From assembly GCA_027717655.1 (NCBI GenBank), contig JALLOH010000002.1:3474-67473 (forward strand): a DNA stretch of 64,000 nt. The letters run 5' to 3'. Within the stretch, counting starts at the first letter, position 1. Each line of letters begins with the position of its first letter. The DNA is from Acidobacteriia bacterium AH_259_A11_L15. Lineage in GTDB: Bacteria > Acidobacteriota > Terriglobia > Acidiferrales > 2-02-FULL-67-57. Below are positions 4,468 through 63,933 of the stretch, one piece after another. The translations under genes and the position numbers were made by a program. The notes under the pieces were generated by a model. It made no database searches and was not told where the DNA came from. It saw nothing but the letters and a program-made list of their open reading frames with translations.

Positions 4468-4477
4468 CGATACTCTT

Positions 4478-4535
4478 GTCATGCTGAACGAAGTGAAGCA
4501 TCTCAGCGGAGATTCTTCGCTTCGCTCAGAATGAC
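4478..4535. repeat. family-A palindromic repeat (hairpin) between convergent genes
   Basis: GTCATGCTGAACGAAGTGAAGCATCTCAGCGGAGATTCTTCGCTTCGCTCAGAATGAC, an inverted repeat. Related copies occur at 6 other sites in the window. Confidence 0.8.
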
Positions 4536-4549
4536 AGACCAGACCTGCC

Positions 4550-8495: not shown

Positions 8496-8604
8496 GGGGT
8501 GCCTAGTGTACTACAAGGGCTTTGTGCGACTTCTCCCAGCACTCCGGGCGGCAGGTGCCGCCCGGCTCGGCGCACAAGAAAAGTTTGCCGCGCCTGCCCC
8601 CAAC

Positions 8605-8635
8605 GCTGAGCCCGGTGGCACCCGCCACCGGGAGC
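8605..8635 (+). repeat. REP hairpin (family E, GGTGGC-ACCC-GCCACC) just downstream of the RAYT gene
   Basis: GCTGAGCCCGGTGGCACCCGCCACCGGGAG. This is the inverted orientation of the three copies at 9179-9331. Confidence 0.75.
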
Positions 8636-8645
8636 GACCAGAGAG

Positions 8646-9341
8646 TCAGTCCAATGGGTTTATTGTGATGCATCCCTGGCCGAGCTCGTAGTTTCGGAGA
8701 CTCGAATACAGATAATTGATTGCCCGTTTCACAAGACGGTCACGAACTGGATTGGCATGAATGTAGTCGAGCTTCTGGTCAAACATCGAGCGCGATGTGA
8801 CAGCGCGGACGTAGCTCCGTGGCTGCAAGACACAGTACAGAGCATCTCGTCTTCGCTCGGGCTGGGTGGGCAAACGCAGGCGGCTAAGGAGACGCGGGTT
8901 GTTCTGTTTCGCCTCGTCAACGACCATGCGGCCGACAGCGCTCTTAAGGTCACGCAGGAAGCCGGCGAAGCTCTTTTCGGGCGGAAAGCCTAAGAGTAAA
9001 TGAAAGTGGTCCGGCATCAGGACATAGGCATAAAGGGAGAATGCGTACTTCGAGCGGTAAAAAGCGAGTTCGCGGAAGAAGATGTCACGGTTGGCAGACT
9101 CACGGAAGAGAGGGACTCTTTTGTAGGTGTTGGCGGTGAGAAAGATAATTCCTGCCCGGACTTTCTTGCCGGGGTAAGTCTTTTTCCCGGTGGCGGGTGC
9201 CACCGGGCTCGGCGCGGGGAGGCGGGAAGCCCTTTTCCCGGTGGCGGGTGCCCCCGGGCTCAGCGCGGGGAGGCGGGAAGTCTTTTTCCCGGTGGCGGGC
9301 GCCACTGGGCTCAGCGCGATGGGTGTCAGGGACTTGGCCAT
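8646..9341 (-). CDS. REP-associated tyrosine transposase (IS200/IS605 TnpA-like, RAYT)
   Basis: Core IIFLTANTYKRVPLF...YAYVLMPDHFHLLL (HUH motif)...DYIHANPVRDRLV...YSS (catalytic Tyr region). The N-terminal about 55 aa are encoded by the REP tandem array. Confidence 0.85.
   Translation of the reverse strand: MAKSLTPIALSPVAPATGKKTSRLPALSPGAPATGKRASRLPAPSPVAPATGKKTYPGKKVRAGIIFLTANTYKRVPLFRESANRDIFFRELAFYRSKYAFSLYAYVLMPDHFHLLLGFPPEKSFAGFLRDLKSAVGRMVVDEAKQNNPRLLSRLRLPTQPERRRDALYCVLQPRSYVRAVTSRSMFDQKLDYIHANPVRDRLVKRAINYLYSSLRNYELGQGCITINPLD
9179..9331 (-). repeat. 3 x 51-bp tandem repeat, each unit carrying a REP hairpin, inside the RAYT 5' coding region
   Basis: Units start at 9179, 9230 and 9281 (TCTTTTTCCCGGTGGCGGGTGCCACCGGGCTCGGCGCGGGGAGGCGGGAAG and variants). 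They are translated as SPVAPATGKKTSRLPAL / SPGAPATGKRASRLPAP / SPVAPATGKKTY. Confidence 0.85.
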
Positions 9342-13558: not shown

Positions 13559-14484
13559 AGCGAAAACGTCGAAGCCAGAAACCAAAAATCAAGCTGCTGC
13601 AAGCCCCGCGGCTGGCCCGGCTGAAATGGCTCCGGCACGCCTTCACCACGCGCTTGCCGGGCGGCTTCAACCTGAACTACTCCGCAGCGGATCGGCCCGC
13701 AAAAGTAGAAAAGAACCGACGGGCGCTTCTGCGAGCGCTGGGGGCGAAGACGCCCGGGCCGGGCTGGCAGCTCATCACTCTGCGGCAGCGCCACACCGAC
13801 ATCATTCGGGCGATCGCGAGCACGCCACCGGAGCAACTTTCTGGTTCGCAGCGGGAGCGCGCTGGCGGCGTCAAGCTGGTCGGCGATGCCGCAGTTAGCG
13901 ACCAGCCGGGGTACCTCTTGGCCGTGCAGGTGGCCGACTGCCTGCCCATCCTGCTGGTTGATGTCGAGCAGCGCGTGGTGGCCGCCGTGCACGCCGGCTG
14001 GCGGGGCACATTGTCGAGCCTCGCCGCCAAGGCAGTGGGGCGGATGCGGCAGGACTTCGGCTGCAAACCGAAGAGAATCCTGGCGGCCATCGGGCCCGGC
14101 ATCCACGAGTGCTGCTACGAAGTAGGTCGGGCAGTGGTCGAGGCGTACGAGGGTCGCTTCCCGTACGGGGAGAAGCTCTTTCGGCGCACCCAGCCTTCGC
14201 CCAGCGAAGTCCACTGGCAGCAGCCGCGGCTCGAACCCTCCCCAAGCTTCGGAACCCGGGAGCGGCGGCCCCGGCCGGCGGCCACCTCACCGCGGGCGGA
14301 AAGGTTTCATCTCGACCTGGTCGAAGCCAACCAGCGCCAGCTCCTCGCCGCCGGGCTGCAGCCACGAAATATCTGGGCGTCGCCGTTCTGCACCGCCTGC
14401 CGGACGGATTTGTTCTTCTCCCACCGCGCGGAACAGGGCCGCACAGGAAGGATGATGGCAGTTATCGGCTTGGTCGAGCGCTGA
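13555..14484 (+). CDS. pgeF: peptidoglycan editing factor PgeF (YfiH / laccase-domain, DUF152 family)
   Basis: LRHAFTTR, HTDII, ADCLPILL, AAVHAGWRGT, CCYEVG, FSHR motifs. The GTG start at 13555 overlaps the upstream stop (GTGA). Carries an about 40-aa Pro/Arg-rich insertion (SPSEVHWQQPRLEPSPSFGTRERRPRPAATSP). Confidence 0.85.
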   Translation: MKRKRRSQKPKIKLLQAPRLARLKWLRHAFTTRLPGGFNLNYSAADRPAKVEKNRRALLRALGAKTPGPGWQLITLRQRHTDIIRAIASTPPEQLSGSQRERAGGVKLVGDAAVSDQPGYLLAVQVADCLPILLVDVEQRVVAAVHAGWRGTLSSLAAKAVGRMRQDFGCKPKRILAAIGPGIHECCYEVGRAVVEAYEGRFPYGEKLFRRTQPSPSEVHWQQPRLEPSPSFGTRERRPRPAATSPRAERFHLDLVEANQRQLLAAGLQPRNIWASPFCTACRTDLFFSHRAEQGRTGRMMAVIGLVER

Positions 14485-14550
14485 GATTCTTCGCCTGTCT
14501 GCCGCCCGCCTGCGGTAGGCAGGACAGGCAGGGCTCCGCTCAGAATGACA
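14484..14550. repeat. family-A repeat variant between convergent pgeF and radical-SAM genes
   Basis: GAGATTCTTCGCC...GGTAGGCAGGACAGGCAGGGCTCCGCTCAGAATGACAA. Confidence 0.6.
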
Positions 14551-14605
14551 AAAAAGGAAGGCGGAACGAGGGCGGAAGCAGAGCGCTGAGGGGCTTGACC
14601 GCTGG

Positions 14606-24678: not shown

Positions 24679-25020
24679 ATGAACCTGAATCGCAACCTGA
24701 GCTTCGCTGAGTTCTGGCCATACTACCTGGCCCAGCACAGCCGCCCGGCCACCCGTTGGGTGCACTTGGCCGCCACGCTGGCCTGGCTGGCGCTGCTGGC
24801 GGCCGCCCTGGGCACCCGCACCTGGTGGCTGCTGGCGGCCATCCCCGTGGTCGCCTATGGCCTGGCGTGGTTTTCCCACTTCTTCCTCGAGCGCAACCGC
24901 CCCGCCACCTTCCGCTACCCGCTCCTCTCCTTGCTGGCCGACCACAAGATGGCCTTCCTGATGCTGACCGGAGGTATGGCGCGGGAGTTGGAGCAACTGC
25001 AGATTCAACCCCGCCGCTAA
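24679..25020 (+). CDS. DUF962 (Mpo1-like) membrane protein
   Basis: FAEFWPYYLAQHSRPATRWVH...VVAYGLAWFSHFFLERNRPATF pattern. Confidence 0.75.
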   Translation: MNLNRNLSFAEFWPYYLAQHSRPATRWVHLAATLAWLALLAAALGTRTWWLLAAIPVVAYGLAWFSHFFLERNRPATFRYPLLSLLADHKMAFLMLTGGMARELEQLQIQPRR

Positions 25021-25040
25021 CACGTTGCCGCCACGAAGCT

Positions 25041-25113
25041 GTCATCCTGAGCGAAGCGAAGGATCTCAGTTGAGATTCTTCGCTCCGCCCTTCGGGCTTC
25101 GCTCAGAATGACA
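25041..25113. repeat. family-A palindromic repeat (complete inverted pair)
   Basis: GTCATCCTGAGCGAAGCGAAGGATCTCAGTTGAGATTCTTCGCTCCGCCCTTCGGGCTTCGCTCAGAATGAC. Confidence 0.8.
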
Positions 25114-25237
25114 ATTCTTGAAAGAAGAGCAGATGGACAGAGGGTGCAACGCCGACAAGCCATTCCTCTGCGCTGAAAAGCGGATTCCTCTCCCGCAGGG
25201 CGGGATCGGAATGACAAAAAAGAACTACGCTGCCGGG

Positions 25238-35428: not shown

Positions 35429-35437
35429 TTCCCAGCC

Positions 35438-35475
35438 TGTCATTCTGAGCCCCGAATTATTCGGGGCGAAGAATC
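35438..35475. repeat. family-A repeat variant (hairpin) between convergent purB and ferredoxin genes
   Basis: TGTCATTCTGAGCCCCGAATTATTCGGGGCGAAGAATCTG. Confidence 0.7.
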
Positions 35476-35483
35476 TGCTTTTC

Positions 35484-35899: not shown

Positions 35900-35960
35900 C
35901 AGGGGCTAAAGCCCCCTGAAAGGGTTGCCGCGATCGGCAGGGCTGAAGCCCTGCCCTACC
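35900..35960. repeat. family-D repeats
   Basis: GGGGCTAAAGCCCCC ... GGCAGGGCTGAAGCCCTGCCCTACC. Confidence 0.7.
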
Positions 35961-51185: not shown

Positions 51186-51378
51186 GCGAGGCGGAAAACC
51201 TGGATCCGGCGCCCCTGGTGGTTGATTGAAGCCACCCCGACAGACCGGAATGTCTGCCCCACCAGCGAAACAGCCTGATTTCTGAGGGCGGGGATCCTTC
51301 GGCAAGCTCCCTTCGGCGCTGCTCAGGGCAAGCAGGACAAGTAACCGCCGCCCCCAGGTTACAGCGGGAGGAGAATCC

Positions 51379-53088
51379 ATGAAGGGTGTGGAACGGGCAC
51401 TGGTGAGCGTGTATGACAAGCGCGGCGTGGTGGAACTGGCGCGGGCGCTGGCGGCGCTGGAGATCGAAATTCTTTCCACCGGCGGCACCGCGCGCCGGCT
51501 GCGCGAGAACGGCGTGCGGTTGCGCGAAGTGAGCGAAGTCACCGGCTTCCCCGAAATGCTGGGCGGGCGGGTCAAGACGCTGCACCCGGCCATCCACGCC
51601 GGCATCCTGGCCCGGCGGGATGACCCGCAGCAGTTGGAGCAACTAAGACAGCAGGGCTTGGGGCCGATTGACCTGGTAGTGGTCAATCTCTATCCGTTCG
51701 CGCAGACGGCGGCGCGTCCCGAAGGTTCGGGAGGAGCCACGCCCGCCGAGCTGGTCGAAGAAATCGACATCGGCGGGCCGACGATGGTCCGGGCGGCGGC
51801 CAAGAACTTTCAGGGGGTGGGCGTAGTGGTCTCGCCCGATGACTACGAACGGGTGATCGAAGAGCTGAAAGCACAGGGCGGCCTGTCGCTGGGCACGCGT
51901 TTGGAACTGGCGCGCAAGGCCTTCGCCACCACCGCCGCGTATGACGCGACGATTGCCAGCACCCTCGAAGAACTGCGCGTGGAGGGCAGCACGCTTACTC
52001 GCCAGCCGCCGACCGGCTTTCCCGCCTTCCTTCGGCTCACAGGAAAGAAAGTGACGGACCTGCGCTATGGGGAGAATCCGCATCAGCGAGCGGTCTTGTA
52101 CCGGCTCGCTGATGCGCCCGCCGGAGTCCCGCGTGGCGGGACGGAGGCGGGTGGCTTCGGCATCGCTGGCGCCCGCCAGCTTCAGGGCAAGGAACTCAGC
52201 TACAACAACCTGCTCGACCTGGACGCCGCCTGGGACTTGGCCTCGGAGTTCCAAGAACCCTTCGGGGCGAGCCCTCAGGGTGAACCGGTGGTTGCCATCA
52301 TCAAGCACACCAACCCCTGCGGGGTGGCCGTGGGCCGTCCCGAAGCTTCGGGACAGGCCGAAGCCTACGAGAAGGCGCTGGCGTGCGACCCGGTTTCCGC
52401 CTTCGGCTCGGTCATGGGGCTGAACCAGCCGCTCACCGCCGCGACGGCCGAGGCGATGAGCAAGCTATTCGTCGAGGCCATCGCCGCGCCGGGCTACGAA
52501 CCCAAGGCGCGGGAGATTCTGGCCAAGAAGAAGAACCTCCGGTTGATGGAAGTGACCCCGCAAAGCGGGGTCATCCTGAGCGAGCCCGAAGGGCGAGTCG
52601 AAGGGTCTGCTTTTTTTCGCTATCGCCTCCGCTCCATTTCCGGCGGGCTGCTGGTGCAGGAAAAAGACTGCGGGCAATTGAACCCGAAGGAATTGCGCAC
52701 GGTCAGCAAACGCGCGCCCACGACCGAGGAGCTTCAGTCGCTGCTCTTCGCCTGGGTGGTGGCCAAGCACGTGAAGTCGAACGCCATCGTCTACGCCCGC
52801 GACGGGCAGACGGTCGGTATCGGCGCCGGGCAGATGAGCCGGGTGGATTCCGTCAAGCTCGGTGCTATGAAAGCCCGCGAGCTGGGCCACGCCGGGCGGC
52901 TGAAAGGCTCGGTGCTGGCCTCCGACGCTTTCTTCCCTTTCCCCGACGGCGTCGAAGAGGCGGCCAAGGCGGGCGTCACGGCGGTGATTCAACCCGGCGG
53001 CTCCAAGCGCGACCCGGAAGTCATCGCCGCCGCCGACCGCCTCGGCCTGACGATGGTGTTTACCGGCATCCGCCATTTCAGACATTGA
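51379..53088 (+). CDS. purH: bifunctional AICAR transformylase / IMP cyclohydrolase
   Basis: [68 protein letters not shown]. Contains an in-frame repeat-derived insertion at 52568-52612. Confidence 0.95.
52568..52612 (+). repeat. family-A repeat copy inserted in frame inside purH
   Basis: GGTCATCCTGAGCGAGCCCGAAGGGCGAGTCGAAGGGTCTGC, translated as [15 protein letters not shown]. Confidence 0.7.
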
Positions 53089-53450
53089 TGGGAACCACGG
53101 ATGTAGGAGTTACTGCCAAAATTAGTTATCATGATGGAGTAAACCAGTCAGTAGTCTCGGTGAATGGCATGCTGATCAACCTGTACTTGATCCTGGCAAT
53201 CGGAAGTTGGTTTTTCATGTTGTTCTTCGGAGAGAAGCTAGAAGGTCAAAAGGGAAAGAAGACGCAAGGCGTAGCCGGAATTTATCTCTTTTGGGGATAT
53301 ATTGCTTTCGTTTTCTGGTCGGCGGTCGTGCTCGGCATCTGGGAGCGAGAGTTGCTCATTGTGGCTGCTATCGGCAGCATCCCTGGACTCTTGGGTACCT
53401 ATCTGCTCCTCGGCACTGTGGTCGACGCTCTAAGAGGGAACAGAAATTAA
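53088..53450 (+). CDS. hypothetical 3-TM membrane protein (120 aa), islet 2
   Basis: The ATG overlaps the purH stop (TGATG). Three hydrophobic helices. AT-richer than the backbone. An internal ATG near 53169 is an alternative start. Confidence 0.55.
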   Translation: MGTTDVGVTAKISYHDGVNQSVVSVNGMLINLYLILAIGSWFFMLFFGEKLEGQKGKKTQGVAGIYLFWGYIAFVFWSAVVLGIWERELLIVAAIGSIPGLLGTYLLLGTVVDALRGNRN

Positions 53451-53483
53451 CTGCGCAACAATCGTAATGGGACACCAGCAAGC

Positions 53484-54266
53484 GTGGTTTCGCTTGCAGT
53501 CGCAATGACCAGCAGAACGATAGGGCGAGACGCACTCAAGCAAGCGATGATCCAAGCCCTGGAGTCATATCCTCTGTGCAAGTTTTTCTTGTCGCAGTAT
53601 GTCCAGAAAATGACCGATATAGATATGCAGCGAGACGAGGCATTCCATGTATCTGTCAAGCGGATTCTGTTGATCGACACCCACCTGATACGTGAGTTTG
53701 AAGCACTTATTTCTTCTTCCCTGCAAGCCTTGGGTTTGTCGAAGGAAGAGCTTAAGAAATCTTCGGAGTTCAACTTTGAGTGCTATAACCCTACAAACCT
53801 GGAAAGTTTCTTCGGTGTACTGCGCGCCGCGATCTTCCTACACGAAAAGGGGTATACGGATTTGAAGCTCCTCAAGCGGGCGTCCTGCGCTGACATTCTT
53901 TGTCGCTTCCATGGAAGATGGGTATGTCTTGAGGTGAAAACACTGACTTACGACCGTAGAGGGGGTAGAGGTTTATGGCTAGGGGATCAGGTAGGCGACA
54001 AACTGAAAGACATTCTCCCTTCCGCTCGAAGGCAGCTTTCAAAAGCAAGGGTGGACTATGCTTGCCCGGAAACCATCCTTGCCGTTGTAGTCAACTGGCT
54101 TGAACAATCGGCCGTACTCCAACAAGAAGACTATCAGGAGATTGTGGATAAACTGGAATCGGGTACGCCGAATCTCAACCAGCTAGAAGGACTAGATCAC
54201 ATTGTTTTTATCACTTACTTCGGTCAAGCTTACCCCTTCTCTCGGACTCAACTGGCTTCCTCATAA
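53484..54266 (+). CDS. hypothetical protein with PD-(D/E)xK nuclease-like core, islet 2
   Basis: ...RASCADILCRFHGRWVCLEVKTL... fits D-x13-E-x-K. A sampled 60-nt line is about 43% G+C. ATG at 53505 is an alternative start. Confidence 0.6.
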   Translation: MVSLAVAMTSRTIGRDALKQAMIQALESYPLCKFFLSQYVQKMTDIDMQRDEAFHVSVKRILLIDTHLIREFEALISSSLQALGLSKEELKKSSEFNFECYNPTNLESFFGVLRAAIFLHEKGYTDLKLLKRASCADILCRFHGRWVCLEVKTLTYDRRGGRGLWLGDQVGDKLKDILPSARRQLSKARVDYACPETILAVVVNWLEQSAVLQQEDYQEIVDKLESGTPNLNQLEGLDHIVFITYFGQAYPFSRTQLASS

Positions 54267-59054: not shown

Positions 59055-59469
59055 CGGGCCCCCTCACCTTCGCCGCCGAGGCCGGCTTGCCCTGAGCTCA
59101 TCGAAGGGTGGCACCTGCCACCGGCTTTTCACCTGGATGCGTCAAGGGTCTCTTTTCGCTGCTTGCCCTGTCGTGTAAACTGCGGCACGAACTCCCCGTG
59201 GCAGGTGCCACGGGGCTCAGCGCAGTAGGTGAGTGTTTTGATAGGGCAGGGCTTCAGCCCTGCCGTTCGCGGCTGTTAAAGATTGGGCTTTAGCCCCTGA
59301 GGACACCCGGCTTTTCCGCAACGCGGCTCTCGTGTAAACTGCCTGCCTTGAACGAGAAGCTTGGGTAGGACAAGGCTTTATGCCTTGCCGCTCAACCGGC
59401 AGGGGATGAACCCCTGCCCTACCCAGCCCGATTGTCATCCTGAGCGAAGCGAAGGATCTCAACGCAGCC
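59055..59469. repeat. 415-bp rplT-pheS spacer made almost entirely of dispersed repeats (families E, D, A)
   Basis: REP pair at 59106-59124 and 59194-59223 (inverted), TCGTGTAAACTGC at 59171 and 59330, family D at 59241-59300 and 59364-59424, family A at 59432-59460. Confidence 0.75.
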
Positions 59470-60615
59470 ATGACCGACATCCTGCAAAAGCTTCCGTTCA
59501 AGATTACGCAGCTGGGGATTCAATCACCTGAAGAGGTTGAGAATATTTTTGCAGAACTGCGGGCTGCGTTCGATCGGGAACTTGGGGAGAAACATGACAT
59601 AGAAGGGCTTGAAGGAATTCGAATCCGTTGGCGGGGTCGGAAAGGTCTTGACCGGCTTCTTCGTGATAACTGGCTCAAGCCCGAGTCAAAGTTCAAACCC
59701 GCAGTGGGCAAGGCGTACAACGATTTCAAGGACTATGTGGAATCCTCTCTCGCGCTGCGTTTGCAACACCTAAGAGCTCAAGAAGAAAGTCGCGAGATGG
59801 CCGCAGAAGGAGTAGATCTCACTCTCCCCGGGCTGGCGGCTCGCCGCGGCGCCCGCCACTTGGTCACCCAGACCCTGGAAGAAATTTGCGACATCTTCGC
59901 CCGCATCGGCTTTTCGGTGGTGGAAGGCCCGGAGGTGGAAACCGATTACTACAACTTCGAGGCCCTCAACATCCCTCAGCACCATCCCGCCCGCGACACC
60001 ATGGACACGCTCTATCTGGATCTGCCCGCCCGCGCCCTGCCCGAGGAAATCCGCGGCCCGCGCTCCGACCCCAATCAGTTCCTCCTGCTGCGCACCCATA
60101 CCTCGCCCGTGCAAATCCGCACCATGGAGAAGCAGAAGCCGCCGGTGCGCGTGGTGGTGCCGGGCAAGGTGTACCGCCGCGACAATCCCGACGCCACCCA
60201 CTCCTTTATGTTCCACCAGGTCGAAGGCCTGGCTGTCGACCGCGACCTCACCTTCTGCGAGTTTAAGGGCGCGATGGAGTATTTCCTGCGGGAGTTCTTC
60301 GGGCCGGAGACCAAGACCCGCTTCGCGGCCAGCTATTTCCCTTTCACCGAGCCCTCGGCCGACCTGGCGGCTACCTGCGGCGTCTGCCAGGGGTCCGGCT
60401 GCTCGGTCTGCAAGCACACCGGCTGGATCGAACTCTTCGGCGCCGGCATGGTGGACCCGGCGGTCTACGGATTCGTGGACTACGAGCCGGGGGAGCTGTC
60501 GGGGTTCGCCTTCGGGATGGGGGTGGAGCGGTTCGCCATGATCAAGTACGGCGTGGACGACCTCCAGCTCTTCTTCCAGAACGATGTGAGGTTCTTACAG
60601 CAATTCCGCCGCTAG
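59470..60615 (+). CDS. pheS: phenylalanine--tRNA ligase alpha subunit
   Basis: Class II motifs (HPARDTMDT, LLRTHTSPVQIR, YRRD, FHQVEG, GAGMVDP...GFAFGMGVERF). Confidence 0.95.
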   Translation: MTDILQKLPFKITQLGIQSPEEVENIFAELRAAFDRELGEKHDIEGLEGIRIRWRGRKGLDRLLRDNWLKPESKFKPAVGKAYNDFKDYVESSLALRLQHLRAQEESREMAAEGVDLTLPGLAARRGARHLVTQTLEEICDIFARIGFSVVEGPEVETDYYNFEALNIPQHHPARDTMDTLYLDLPARALPEEIRGPRSDPNQFLLLRTHTSPVQIRTMEKQKPPVRVVVPGKVYRRDNPDATHSFMFHQVEGLAVDRDLTFCEFKGAMEYFLREFFGPETKTRFAASYFPFTEPSADLAATCGVCQGSGCSVCKHTGWIELFGAGMVDPAVYGFVDYEPGELSGFAFGMGVERFAMIKYGVDDLQLFFQNDVRFLQQFRR

Positions 60616-60656: not shown

Positions 60657-60730
60657 TTGTCATCCTGAGCGCAGCGAAGGATCTCAGCCGAGATTCTTCG
60701 CCCCGAATATTCGGGGCTCAGAATGACAAG
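60657..60730. repeat. family-A palindromic repeat (complete pair)
   Basis: CTTGTCATCCTGAGCGCAGCGAAGGATCTCAGCCGAGATTCTTCGCCCCGAATATTCGGGGCTCAGAATGACAAG. Confidence 0.8.
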
Positions 60731-63736: not shown

Positions 63737-63933
63737 GGACTACGCCTGCGACGTTCGTGAGGGTGCTCGGGATAAACTGAGCCAACAGACGAAGAATGGG
63801 AGTTCGGGTCGCGTGCTGGTGAGCATGTCCCGAATCTTCGGGAAAGCCTAAAGGCGCGCGCAGAACACCCACCTGAACGTACGGTTCAGGCTACCAAGTG
63901 CCCCACGGCGCCGGCGGACGTAGTTCTCTTTTT
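63737..63933 (+). ncRNA. ssrS: candidate 6S RNA
   Basis: An ORF-free stretch of about 197 nt directly downstream of zapA, the conserved ssrS position in E. coli. The 5' end GGACUACG pairs with the 3' end CGUAGUUC, followed by a U-run. A long imperfect rod is possible (for example CGUGAGGGUGCUCGG with CCAAGUGCCCCACG). Confidence 0.45.

Follow-up and report, generated by a model that had tools for sequence, protein, structure and literature searches.

A hairpin-repeat unit of apparent Ssn type lies in frame in an acidobacterial purH gene, probably as a tolerated passenger of a fast-changing loop

The purH gene of Acidobacteriia bacterium AH_259_A11_L15 lies within a 64,000-nucleotide (nt) stretch of contig JALLOH010000002.1, referred to hereafter as the window, and contains, in frame, a sequence that resembles the short hairpin repeats scattered elsewhere in the same DNA. 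The locus raises the question of whether a housekeeping enzyme has taken such an element into service or only puts up with it. The first-pass annotation of the window had favored the former, proposing that an element resembling a MITE (a miniature transposable element with inverted repeats) or a repetitive extragenic palindromic (REP) sequence was inserted in frame and domesticated as a surface loop of PurH. The evidence presented here points the other way: the insert is likely a unit of an Ssn-type hairpin repeat, carried as a selfish or neutral passenger in a loop whose contents turn over quickly, and not a functional addition to the protein.

The host gene, which encodes the bifunctional 5-aminoimidazole-4-carboxamide ribonucleotide (AICAR) formyltransferase/inosine monophosphate (IMP) cyclohydrolase, is intact. 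Its open reading frame (ORF) specifies a product with the Pfam domains MGS and AICARFT_IMPCHas, which aligns end to end with the solved bacterial PurH structures 3zzm, 4ehi and 9ou7 and is a 100% match to an acidobacterial PurH record at NCBI (P0001). The gene order is that seen in relatives, namely selA, a gene for a 200-amino-acid (aa) product, purH, a metallo-beta-lactamase-fold gene, thrS, infC, rplT, pheS and pheT. The inserted unit, GTCATCCTGAGCGAGCCCGAAGGGCGAGTCGAAGGGTCTGCTTTTTTT, begins with GTCATCCTGAGCGAGCCCGAAGGGCGAGTCGAAGGG at position 52570, and its 3' part, TCTGCTTTTTTT, reaches 52617; the DNA quoted in the first-pass annotation is present, with its start to be moved to 52570 from 52568 and its end extended to 52617. 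Within the unit, an outer stem is formed by ATCCT (52573-77) and AGGGT (52602-06), with one T-G mismatch, and the apex holds a mini-hairpin, GCCC-GAA-GGGC (52584-94). As had been claimed, the frame is kept and the motifs on either side of the insert are undisturbed. The earlier estimate that the loop had been lengthened by about 14 aa was about right, since the loop exceeds that of the three structures by 11-13 aa and the empty loops of two syntenic loci from relatives (L088 and L090) by about 15 aa.

Alignment of copies from the window and from related loci gave the unit plan YTGTC-ATNCN-GAGCG-(variable apex)-CGA-NGNAT-CT, in which ATNCN and NGNAT are complementary 5-nt half-stems and the apex, at its shortest, is GAA, other copies having a nested GC-rich hairpin there. 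The 5-bp outer stem is perfectly complementary in 45 of 48 units, in seven covarying types; when left and right halves were shuffled among the units, the number of complementary stems averaged 11 and never exceeded 20. The purH copy is one of the three units with an imperfect stem. That it is nevertheless a copy of the dispersed intergenic repeat was borne out by two counts: the 14-mer GTCATCCTGAGCGA occurs 6 times in the window when one mismatch is allowed (0.06 expected), and an nhmmer profile of the unit matches the purH copy over 52570-52615 with E=1.4e-7. Altogether the profile recognized seven sites in the window, the purH copy and six others (Table 1). On a gene map based on GC content at third codon positions, all six others are intergenic, four lying between convergent and two between co-directional genes. 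The statement that the repeat is otherwise found only between genes holds for these six sites, but the purH copy is not unique, as related PurH loops carry the same family.

Three of the window sites are doublets, in which two units are inverted and head-out with a spacer of 3-10 nt. The purH unit corresponds to one arm of these intergenic palindromes of 72 bp and has its apex, GCCCGAAGGGC, in common with one arm of the doublet at 25039-25114. Of the doublets, two were folded and both formed very stable hairpins (z=-6.6 and -8.1), whereas the purH unit by itself folded no better than shuffled DNA (z=+0.4); the term palindromic suits the intergenic doublets better than the single arm in purH. 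At about 72 bp the doublets may be set beside the usual definition of a MITE, which asks for terminal inverted repeats and target-site duplications in an element of 100-400 bp; no clear target duplication was visible by eye at 25039-25114 or 60657-60729, and a 7-nt repeat near the purH insert of L091 is not adjacent to the unit. A scan of the whole window at Rfam gathering thresholds returned 6S RNA alone, and E-value scans of 24950-25200 and 52450-52750 gave no credible match, so the unit belongs to no curated RNA family. Pfam searches of ten window ORFs, chosen near repeats or in low-GC patches, revealed no transposase or nuclease.

Two other identities were tried for the purH unit and rejected. 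A transcription terminator was set aside because a simple terminator scan left the unit unflagged and its fold was no better than shuffled, and removal in the manner of an intron or intein because the 48 nt come without a matching RNA family or protein splicing motif.

Could the likeness be accidental, with an ordinary variable PurH loop happening to resemble the repeat, or the product of mis-assembly? Loop length does vary across PurH proteins generally. This explanation must, however, account for the profile E-value, for a 35-nt core identical to units in unrelated metagenome contexts, for the recovery of the window allele in a second assembly (P0121, with three substitutions) and for more than 30 independently assembled PurH genes with recognizable units, and we regard it as effectively refuted.

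The history of the loop was examined in the best 120 PurH homologues, which were aligned and in which the loop was taken as the segment between L-x-E-V/I and R-x-R-S. Many of these proteins carry a translated repeat at the very same site, in forward orientation or as the reverse complement. Among the 61 closest, ordered on a neighbor-joining sketch, 21 have a forward unit and 10 a reverse-complemented one, while 15 loops are short and 15 decayed or unclear. The alignment also placed short loops in many Acidobacteria and in outgroup loci (L001-L018), and nearly all species-representative relatives among the matches listed, which are at most 57% identical and served as outgroup only, have a short loop. 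The ortholog comparison proposed in the first-pass annotation therefore did turn up insert-free relatives, and since empty loops occur in L088 and L090, in 15 of the 61 closest homologues and in other Acidobacteria, the occupied state is derived.

The loop contents of twelve syntenic purH loci were also compared at the DNA level (Table 1). Compared with the window unit, the purH unit of L083 is 91% identical, and that of L087, which lies in the opposite orientation, 93%; the purH genes of those two genomes are 73-75% identical to that of the window overall and about 55% at third-codon positions. The apex modules of L083 and L089 differ, and the insert of L082 has a second repeat type nested within its apex. 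Among proteins, P0023, with a forward unit, is 97% identical outside the loop to P0029, with a reverse one, the forward P0028 and the reverse P0040 reach 92-95% identity, and P0008 (forward) is 99.7% identical to P0016 (empty) on the N-side and 98% on the C-side; forward, reverse and empty states are thus interleaved among PurH proteins that are 92-99% identical. At L081, where the purH DNA is 94.6% identical to that of the window, the loop is quite different and only a diverged 3' part of the unit is kept, and the other full-length members of the 90% cluster to which P0121 belongs have a different loop as well. Taken together, the identity of the units, the mixture of orientations and the interleaving of states indicate that conservation lies with the repeat rather than with the peptide, and that the loop turns over fast.

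These comparisons bear directly on the proposal of domestication, under which the insert would be a functional surface loop of PurH selected for a role of the protein. In its favor may be counted the preserved frame, the frequency of inserts at this loop in the clade, and the use, without exception, of a single frame among the open forward ones and of a single frame among the two open reverse ones. Yet the two orientations encode unrelated peptides, the insert is present or absent among nearly identical proteins, L081 has a different loop in spite of the close relationship of its purH, the inserted segment is modeled with low confidence (see below), and what is conserved is the DNA consensus of the repeat and its hairpin, not the peptide. 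The word domesticated is unsupported, and we consider a selected protein-level role highly improbable.

A different history, in which the loop was colonized only once in the ancestor of the clade, would dispense with repeated de novo insertion: a two-arm element could have lost different arms in different lineages, and the present alleles would have arisen from it through decay, deletion, in-place rearrangement and gene conversion by copies elsewhere in the genome. Several features are in keeping with such a course. One frame serves all forward alleles and a second one all reverse alleles; the occupied turn never varies; decayed versions exist (P0002, P0020, P0033, P0035 and P0055); and forward alleles tend to retain loop residues on the N-side, reverse alleles those on the C-side, as if a head-out doublet had lost alternative arms. 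However, none of the 120 homologues has both arms in one loop, close relatives have different apex modules, conservation of the units far exceeds that of the synonymous sites of the host gene, and the three loop states alternate at 92-99% protein identity, the last two observations both implying frequent renewal. We consider a single ancient colonization rather unlikely, and retain the reading of the insert as a passenger that is often replaced.

Some PurH sequences are mosaic around the loop (P0008, P0011, P0014, P0016 and P0018). P0016, for instance, matches P0008 at 99.7% on the N-side, yet shares its loop with P0014, the N-side identity of which is only 90.8%; such sequences could arise at the repeat either by recombination or by chimeric assembly of the metagenome. 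Palindromes of other kinds were also noted in this loop. In L081 (2179-2247), nested palindromes were recognized by eye (CAGCCCG...CGGGCTG around GCCCGTACGGGC, followed by GCCAATTTGTTGGC) and the GTCAT head is lacking, which leaves either a decayed unit or a different element. In the PurH loop of a Terriglobales-type metagenome-assembled genome (L092:11126-11191; group P0061-P0120) lies an unrelated perfect 15-bp palindrome, CCGGACGCCTCGTCCGGGGGGCGGACGAGGCGTCCG, which folds at -25 kcal/mol (z=-5) and encodes SPGRLVRGADEASAAP. Neither the L081 nor the L092 palindrome had dispersed relatives in 0.9 Mb of comparison DNA (blastn for L081), and no dispersed copies of the latter were found in the 21 kb around it.

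An AlphaFold2 model of PurH, computed from 56 aligned homologues (mean predicted local distance difference test score, pLDDT, 86.5; predicted template-modeling score, pTM, 0.80), contains only two segments with pLDDT <50, residues 246-257 and residues 397-412, the latter being the insert. It connects strands 388-391 and 415-420 of the AICAR-transformylase domain, and the model fits the occupation of a permissive turn, one that is probably flexible and solvent-exposed, for which reason PurH would tolerate 16 extra residues. Of the surface loop proposed earlier, what the model returned is a connection of low confidence between two strands, its position at the surface being probable.

Further clade-specific inserts were noticed in PurH at residues 116-119, 244-256, 293-299 and 319-322. 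The second of these (window 52108-52146) is shared only by the P0002 group and likewise has pLDDT <50. None of them is among the repeats listed by the whole-window scan, no test having been aimed at them.

What kind of repeat is this? The closest counterpart was found in the NTS/SRM repeats (Chenal et al., Nat Commun 2025, PMC11893778). The Ssn family, whose founding member is SsnA, comprises nucleases that cut single-stranded DNA in a site-specific manner. SsnA binds the NTS hairpin CGTCATTCCCGCGMAVGCGGGAATCYRG and makes its cut a few nucleotides upstream, and the arrangement NTS-ssnA-NTS was likened by its authors to an insertion sequence (PMC11893778). The units described here (TGTCATYCYGAGCG..CGARGRATCT) resemble NTS in their oriented head, (C/T)GTCAT, followed by a short hairpin palindrome and a conserved C (YTGTC-ATNCN...NGNAT-C), in their occurrence in many copies as single units and inverted pairs, and in the bracketing of small single-domain GIY-YIG genes (about 95 aa) by inverted units. 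They are unlike NTS in having TGTC and not CGTC as the head, and a stem of only 5 bp that is followed by GAGCG/CGA and a modular apex in which nested hairpins are possible. Neither intragenic copies nor Acidobacteria are described in PMC11893778. Ssn cleavage is known for the Neisseria NTS, and for the acidobacterial variant recognition by an Ssn nuclease is predicted from sequence.

The link to GIY-YIG genes emerged from a metagenome scan for the exact 35-nt core, which yielded 20 loci and about 14 distinct sites. Just one of the distinct sites is in a purH gene (L094, reverse orientation), and at three of them a small GIY-YIG gene (PF01541) is bracketed head-out by inverted units (Table 1). 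The start codons of these genes follow the upstream unit by 0-12 nt. The proteins, which by the DNA sequence would be about 98-123 aa long, show 45-52% identity to the SsnA homologue of N. gonorrhoeae (blastp 1e-24 to 1e-28), the gene of which is flanked by canonical NTS; the criterion of PMC11893778 is E <1e-10 to the SsnA of N. meningitidis, while the comparison made here used the N. gonorrhoeae protein. In L099, the ssnA-like gene has upstream of it a unit that matches the L083 purH insert exactly over 41 nt. The bracketing was observed in contigs other than those of the window's own genome. Homologous genes are bracketed alike on plasmids of Planktothrix (TGTCATTCTGAG...), Spirosoma, Rhizobium (CGTCATCCCAGGGCTTGACCCTGGGATCC) and Novosphingobium. 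NCBIfam has no named model for the bracketed proteins, and in the search bearing on Ssn homologues the named relatives among the 120 matches listed were Chloroflexota. Since the head, the palindrome and the trailing C are shared but the published pattern for SRM fails, we treat the repeats as a variant within the SRM family. What Di Nocera et al. named CGTC-tagged REPs (PMC3733652) are the counterparts of the NTS-like repeats, and judged by its sequence the acidobacterial family would be a variant of these hairpin repeats, known as NTS/SRM or as CGTC-tagged REPs; the earlier label of MITE/REP-like was right in spirit and can be made more precise in this way. The doublets look like gene-less derivatives of a unit-ssnA-unit element. 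Literature searches with the repeat and peptide strings, and for Acidobacteria together with MITE or REP, retrieved nothing specific to this repeat family in Acidobacteria.

Another possibility is that the unit acts within purH as a nucleic acid, either as an Ssn cut site in single-stranded DNA that limits recombination or transformation across the locus, or as an attenuator made of a hairpin and a T-run. In Neisseria, NTS repeats and SsnA modulate the integration of transforming DNA, and genes adjoining dRS3 are more diverse (PMC11893778); the PurH alleles are mosaic around the loop, and the forward copy closes with a run of 7 T. Both orientations occur, however, although Ssn cleavage and T-run termination are strand-specific. 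The terminator scan was silent at the purH unit, the stem of which is imperfect, and tblastn placed no ssnA nearby in the window or in the purH loci. We judge a role of this kind to be quite improbable, and the reading as a passenger is to be preferred.

Repeats that are read through inside genes have a counterpart in the Rickettsia palindromic elements (RPEs), which Ogata et al. reportedly described in 2000 as lying in frame in protein-coding genes. RPEs in protein-coding genes are summarized in PMC10969869 and PMC3733652. The purH copy resembles them as a palindromic repeat placed in frame in a housekeeping gene and read through at a structurally permissive site, and it fits what characterizes them: a dispersed repeat in a conserved ORF, with the frame kept, free of stop codons and absent from orthologues. 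By this analogy, we take the insert to be selfish DNA of the RPE kind, tolerated by the host and quickly turned over. Among the RPEs, RPE-4 and RPE-6 are repeats of the CGTC type (PMC3733652). The present case differs from RPEs in organism and sequence family, in the size of its single unit (48 nt vs about 100-150 bp in the RPEs first described), and in that one loop of one enzyme is occupied repeatedly, in both orientations, across a clade.

The CGTC-tagged REPs are likewise short tagged palindromes that mostly lie between convergent or co-directional genes, are often inverted dimers and are occasionally intragenic, encoding 20-30 aa (Di Nocera et al., 2013; PMC3733652). That survey did not find a tyrosine transposase dedicated to them, and located their intragenic copies mainly in replication and repair genes (PMC3733652); unlike those REPs, the repeats described here have the tag TGTC, and purH is not a host reported in that work. 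The REPIN/RAYT system (Bertels and Rainey, 2011; Nunvar, 2010) offers a parallel in its inverted pairs of short hairpins, and the pairs here resemble gene-less derivatives of a unit-gene-unit element that encodes a nuclease for single-stranded hairpins. In contrast to that system, the associated gene is a GIY-YIG nuclease and not an HUH tyrosine transposase, and there is no GTAG tag; no RAYT turned up in a search that was limited to ten window ORFs and was not systematic.

Read-through of the repeat in essential genes is not peculiar to purH, because a MurD gene also carries in-frame doublets. The ORF, at L098:8298-9995 (+) on a lower-GC metagenome contig and with identical sequence in L109, has the domains MurD-like_N, Mur_ligase_M and Mur_ligase_C. 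Its product aligns with PDB 3lk7 in three blocks, between which lie two doublets of the main hairpin family at aa 165-196 and 297-344 relative to that structure, with the peptides LSSRASPKGESRDLIGEISPLVPTSRDSVEMT and LLSSRAKRSEVEGSNFNVMRSFDSPVGAKGASTGSLRMT. A protein-database search with the five open-frame unit peptides concatenated gave 5 candidates, none of which scored, and was of no use for listing host proteins.

The course of events that we propose begins with a unit that an Ssn-type nuclease would have helped to move or copy in single-stranded form, and that would have entered the DNA for the turn joining two beta-strands in the AICAR-transformylase domain. The unit would then have been read through as 16 extra residues, with an effect on the protein that is presumably neutral or nearly so, and units would since have been gained, lost and exchanged in either orientation, by fresh insertion or by recombination with other copies in the genome. 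All outcomes that we saw preserve the frame and are free of stops.

A number of observations weigh against this account. According to tblastn, the 64-kb window and all of the purH loci are without an ssnA homologue. The published SRM pattern, HGTCWYN(0-2)YYVSBRHN(0-5)WNVSBRGN(0-2)RNCYNB, applied as a regular expression, matches no unit of the window; the purH copy, for example, has G before the GTC head, where the pattern asks for H (A, C or T). The same expression matches NTS and the Rhizobium unit and does not match the Planktothrix or Novosphingobium units. All forward alleles are in the frame VI[PL]S...EGSAF and all reverse alleles in the frame KADPS...LGMT, and the repeat consensus leaves three more frames open, two forward and one reverse, that go unused in PurH; a single frame per orientation could reflect a smaller number of independent insertions than the alleles imply, or selection acting on the peptide. 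Most of the sequences compared are metagenomic, many of the homologues come from short metagenome contigs, and mosaic loops could be assembly chimeras. Translation of the insert is suggested by the intact frame. In the fetched loci, no called gene other than purH has a confident copy, alongside about two dozen intergenic copies, and random insertion combined with tolerance only partly accounts for the frequent occupation of this one loop.

For that frequency, several causes come into consideration. A resident unit may attract further events, through recombination with other copies or nested insertion; the site may be a sequence or structure target; or this may simply be the most tolerant loop in the neighborhood. 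We suggest only tentatively, and with more doubt than belief, that the turn between strands 388-391 and 415-420 is a true hotspot into which Ssn-associated repeats insert, or at which they recombine, repeatedly and in both orientations. If so, the alleles would be natural evidence for current mobility of NTS/SRM repeats, a matter that the Ssn work left open, and the selfish DNA in Rickettsia genes would become one case of a cross-phylum, Ssn-linked remodeling of loops that includes PurH and MurD.

Intragenic REPs, RPEs and Ssn-associated hairpin repeats were all known before; the occurrence in Acidobacteria and in purH is new, as is the observation of a hypervariable PurH loop occupied in both directions. 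The repeat family can be tied to a recently described system of nucleases and hairpin repeats. Whether NTS/SRM repeats move was a question raised and not answered in PMC11893778, and the PurH loop, found forward, reverse, decayed and empty among near-identical proteins, is a natural system in which repeat mobility can be studied. In-frame repeats in essential genes also show how much additional sequence can be accommodated by the loop of an enzyme, and offer one way in which new peptide segments can arise. On the practical side, repeat units give rise to many spurious proteins and odd loop inserts in the annotation of soil metagenomes, and they probably also break or chimerize assemblies at their sites.

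Table 1. Features of the purH locus, repeat sites of the window, loop contents of syntenic purH genes and bracketed GIY-YIG genes (positions without a locus number are those of the window)
Feature	Position	Strand	Remarks
purH (bifunctional AICAR formyltransferase/IMP cyclohydrolase)	51379..53088	+	569 aa, ORF unbroken
Single hairpin-repeat unit, in frame in purH	52570..52617	+	codons V398-F413, 16 residues
Hairpin core of the purH unit	52573..52606	+	read directly from the sequence
Doublet (two inverted units), intergenic	4476..4537	.	between convergent genes; 14-mer and profile
Unit with large nested apex, intergenic	14481..14551	-	between convergent genes; profile
Doublet, intergenic, strong hairpin	25039..25114	.	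DNA fold -26.3 kcal/mol, z=-6.6
Single unit with tail CTGCTTTTC, intergenic	35437..35483	+	between convergent genes; profile
Single unit, intergenic	59432..59462	+	14-mer and profile; ends 8 nt before ATG (59470)
Doublet, intergenic, strong hairpin	60657..60729	.	DNA fold -28.6 kcal/mol, z=-8.1
purH loop of L083			forward; same unit variant as window
purH loop of L087			reverse-complemented; same unit variant as window
purH loops of L086, L089			reverse; other apexes
purH loops of L084, L091, L082, L085			forward; other apexes
purH loops of L088, L090			empty
SsnA-like GIY-YIG gene with bracketing units	L099:7120-7700	-	ORF runs into downstream inverted unit, giving a repeat-encoded C-terminal tail
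SsnA-like GIY-YIG gene with bracketing units	L108:1000-1429	-	stop codon just before downstream unit
SsnA-like GIY-YIG gene with bracketing units	L111:1800-2700	+	stop codon just before downstream unit

The ORF at 59470-60615, which follows the single unit at 59432-59462, is named pheS by conserved gene order alone. Directly 3' of purH lies a low-GC patch (53097-54266; GC 0.58 for 52001-54000) with an ORF for a membrane-protein-like product of 117 aa and another of 260 aa, both without a Pfam match; because relatives have different small genes there, the position is a variable spot in an otherwise conserved synteny.

The window holds further repeats. A second dispersed repeat, GCTCCCTTCGGCTGCGCTCAGGACAGGCAG (CTGCCTGTCCTGAGCGCAGCCGAAGGGAGC on the reverse strand), occurs at 51306-51335, 22397, 43069, 44525 and 46390; by eye its core resembles the main hairpin family, one copy lies in the spacer immediately 5' of purH, and a similar segment was seen within the apex of the L082 purH insert. 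Three tandem repeats of 51 nt containing the palindrome TCCCGGTGGCGGGTGCCACCGGG occupy 9173-9325, apparently in the interior of the ORF 8646-9341 (-) or at its end; related copies lie at 8599-8633 and 59193-59231, the copies elsewhere being inverted or dispersed. A short hairpin repeat, TAGGGCAGGGCTTCAGCCCTGCC, the arms of which are 97% complementary, is found at 35927-35958 and 59242-59273, and fragments like it (tagggcagg; ctgccctac) adjoin main-family units at 4537 and 59432. The 6S RNA returned by the Rfam scan (RF00013, 84.8 bits) is located at 63740-63924 (+).

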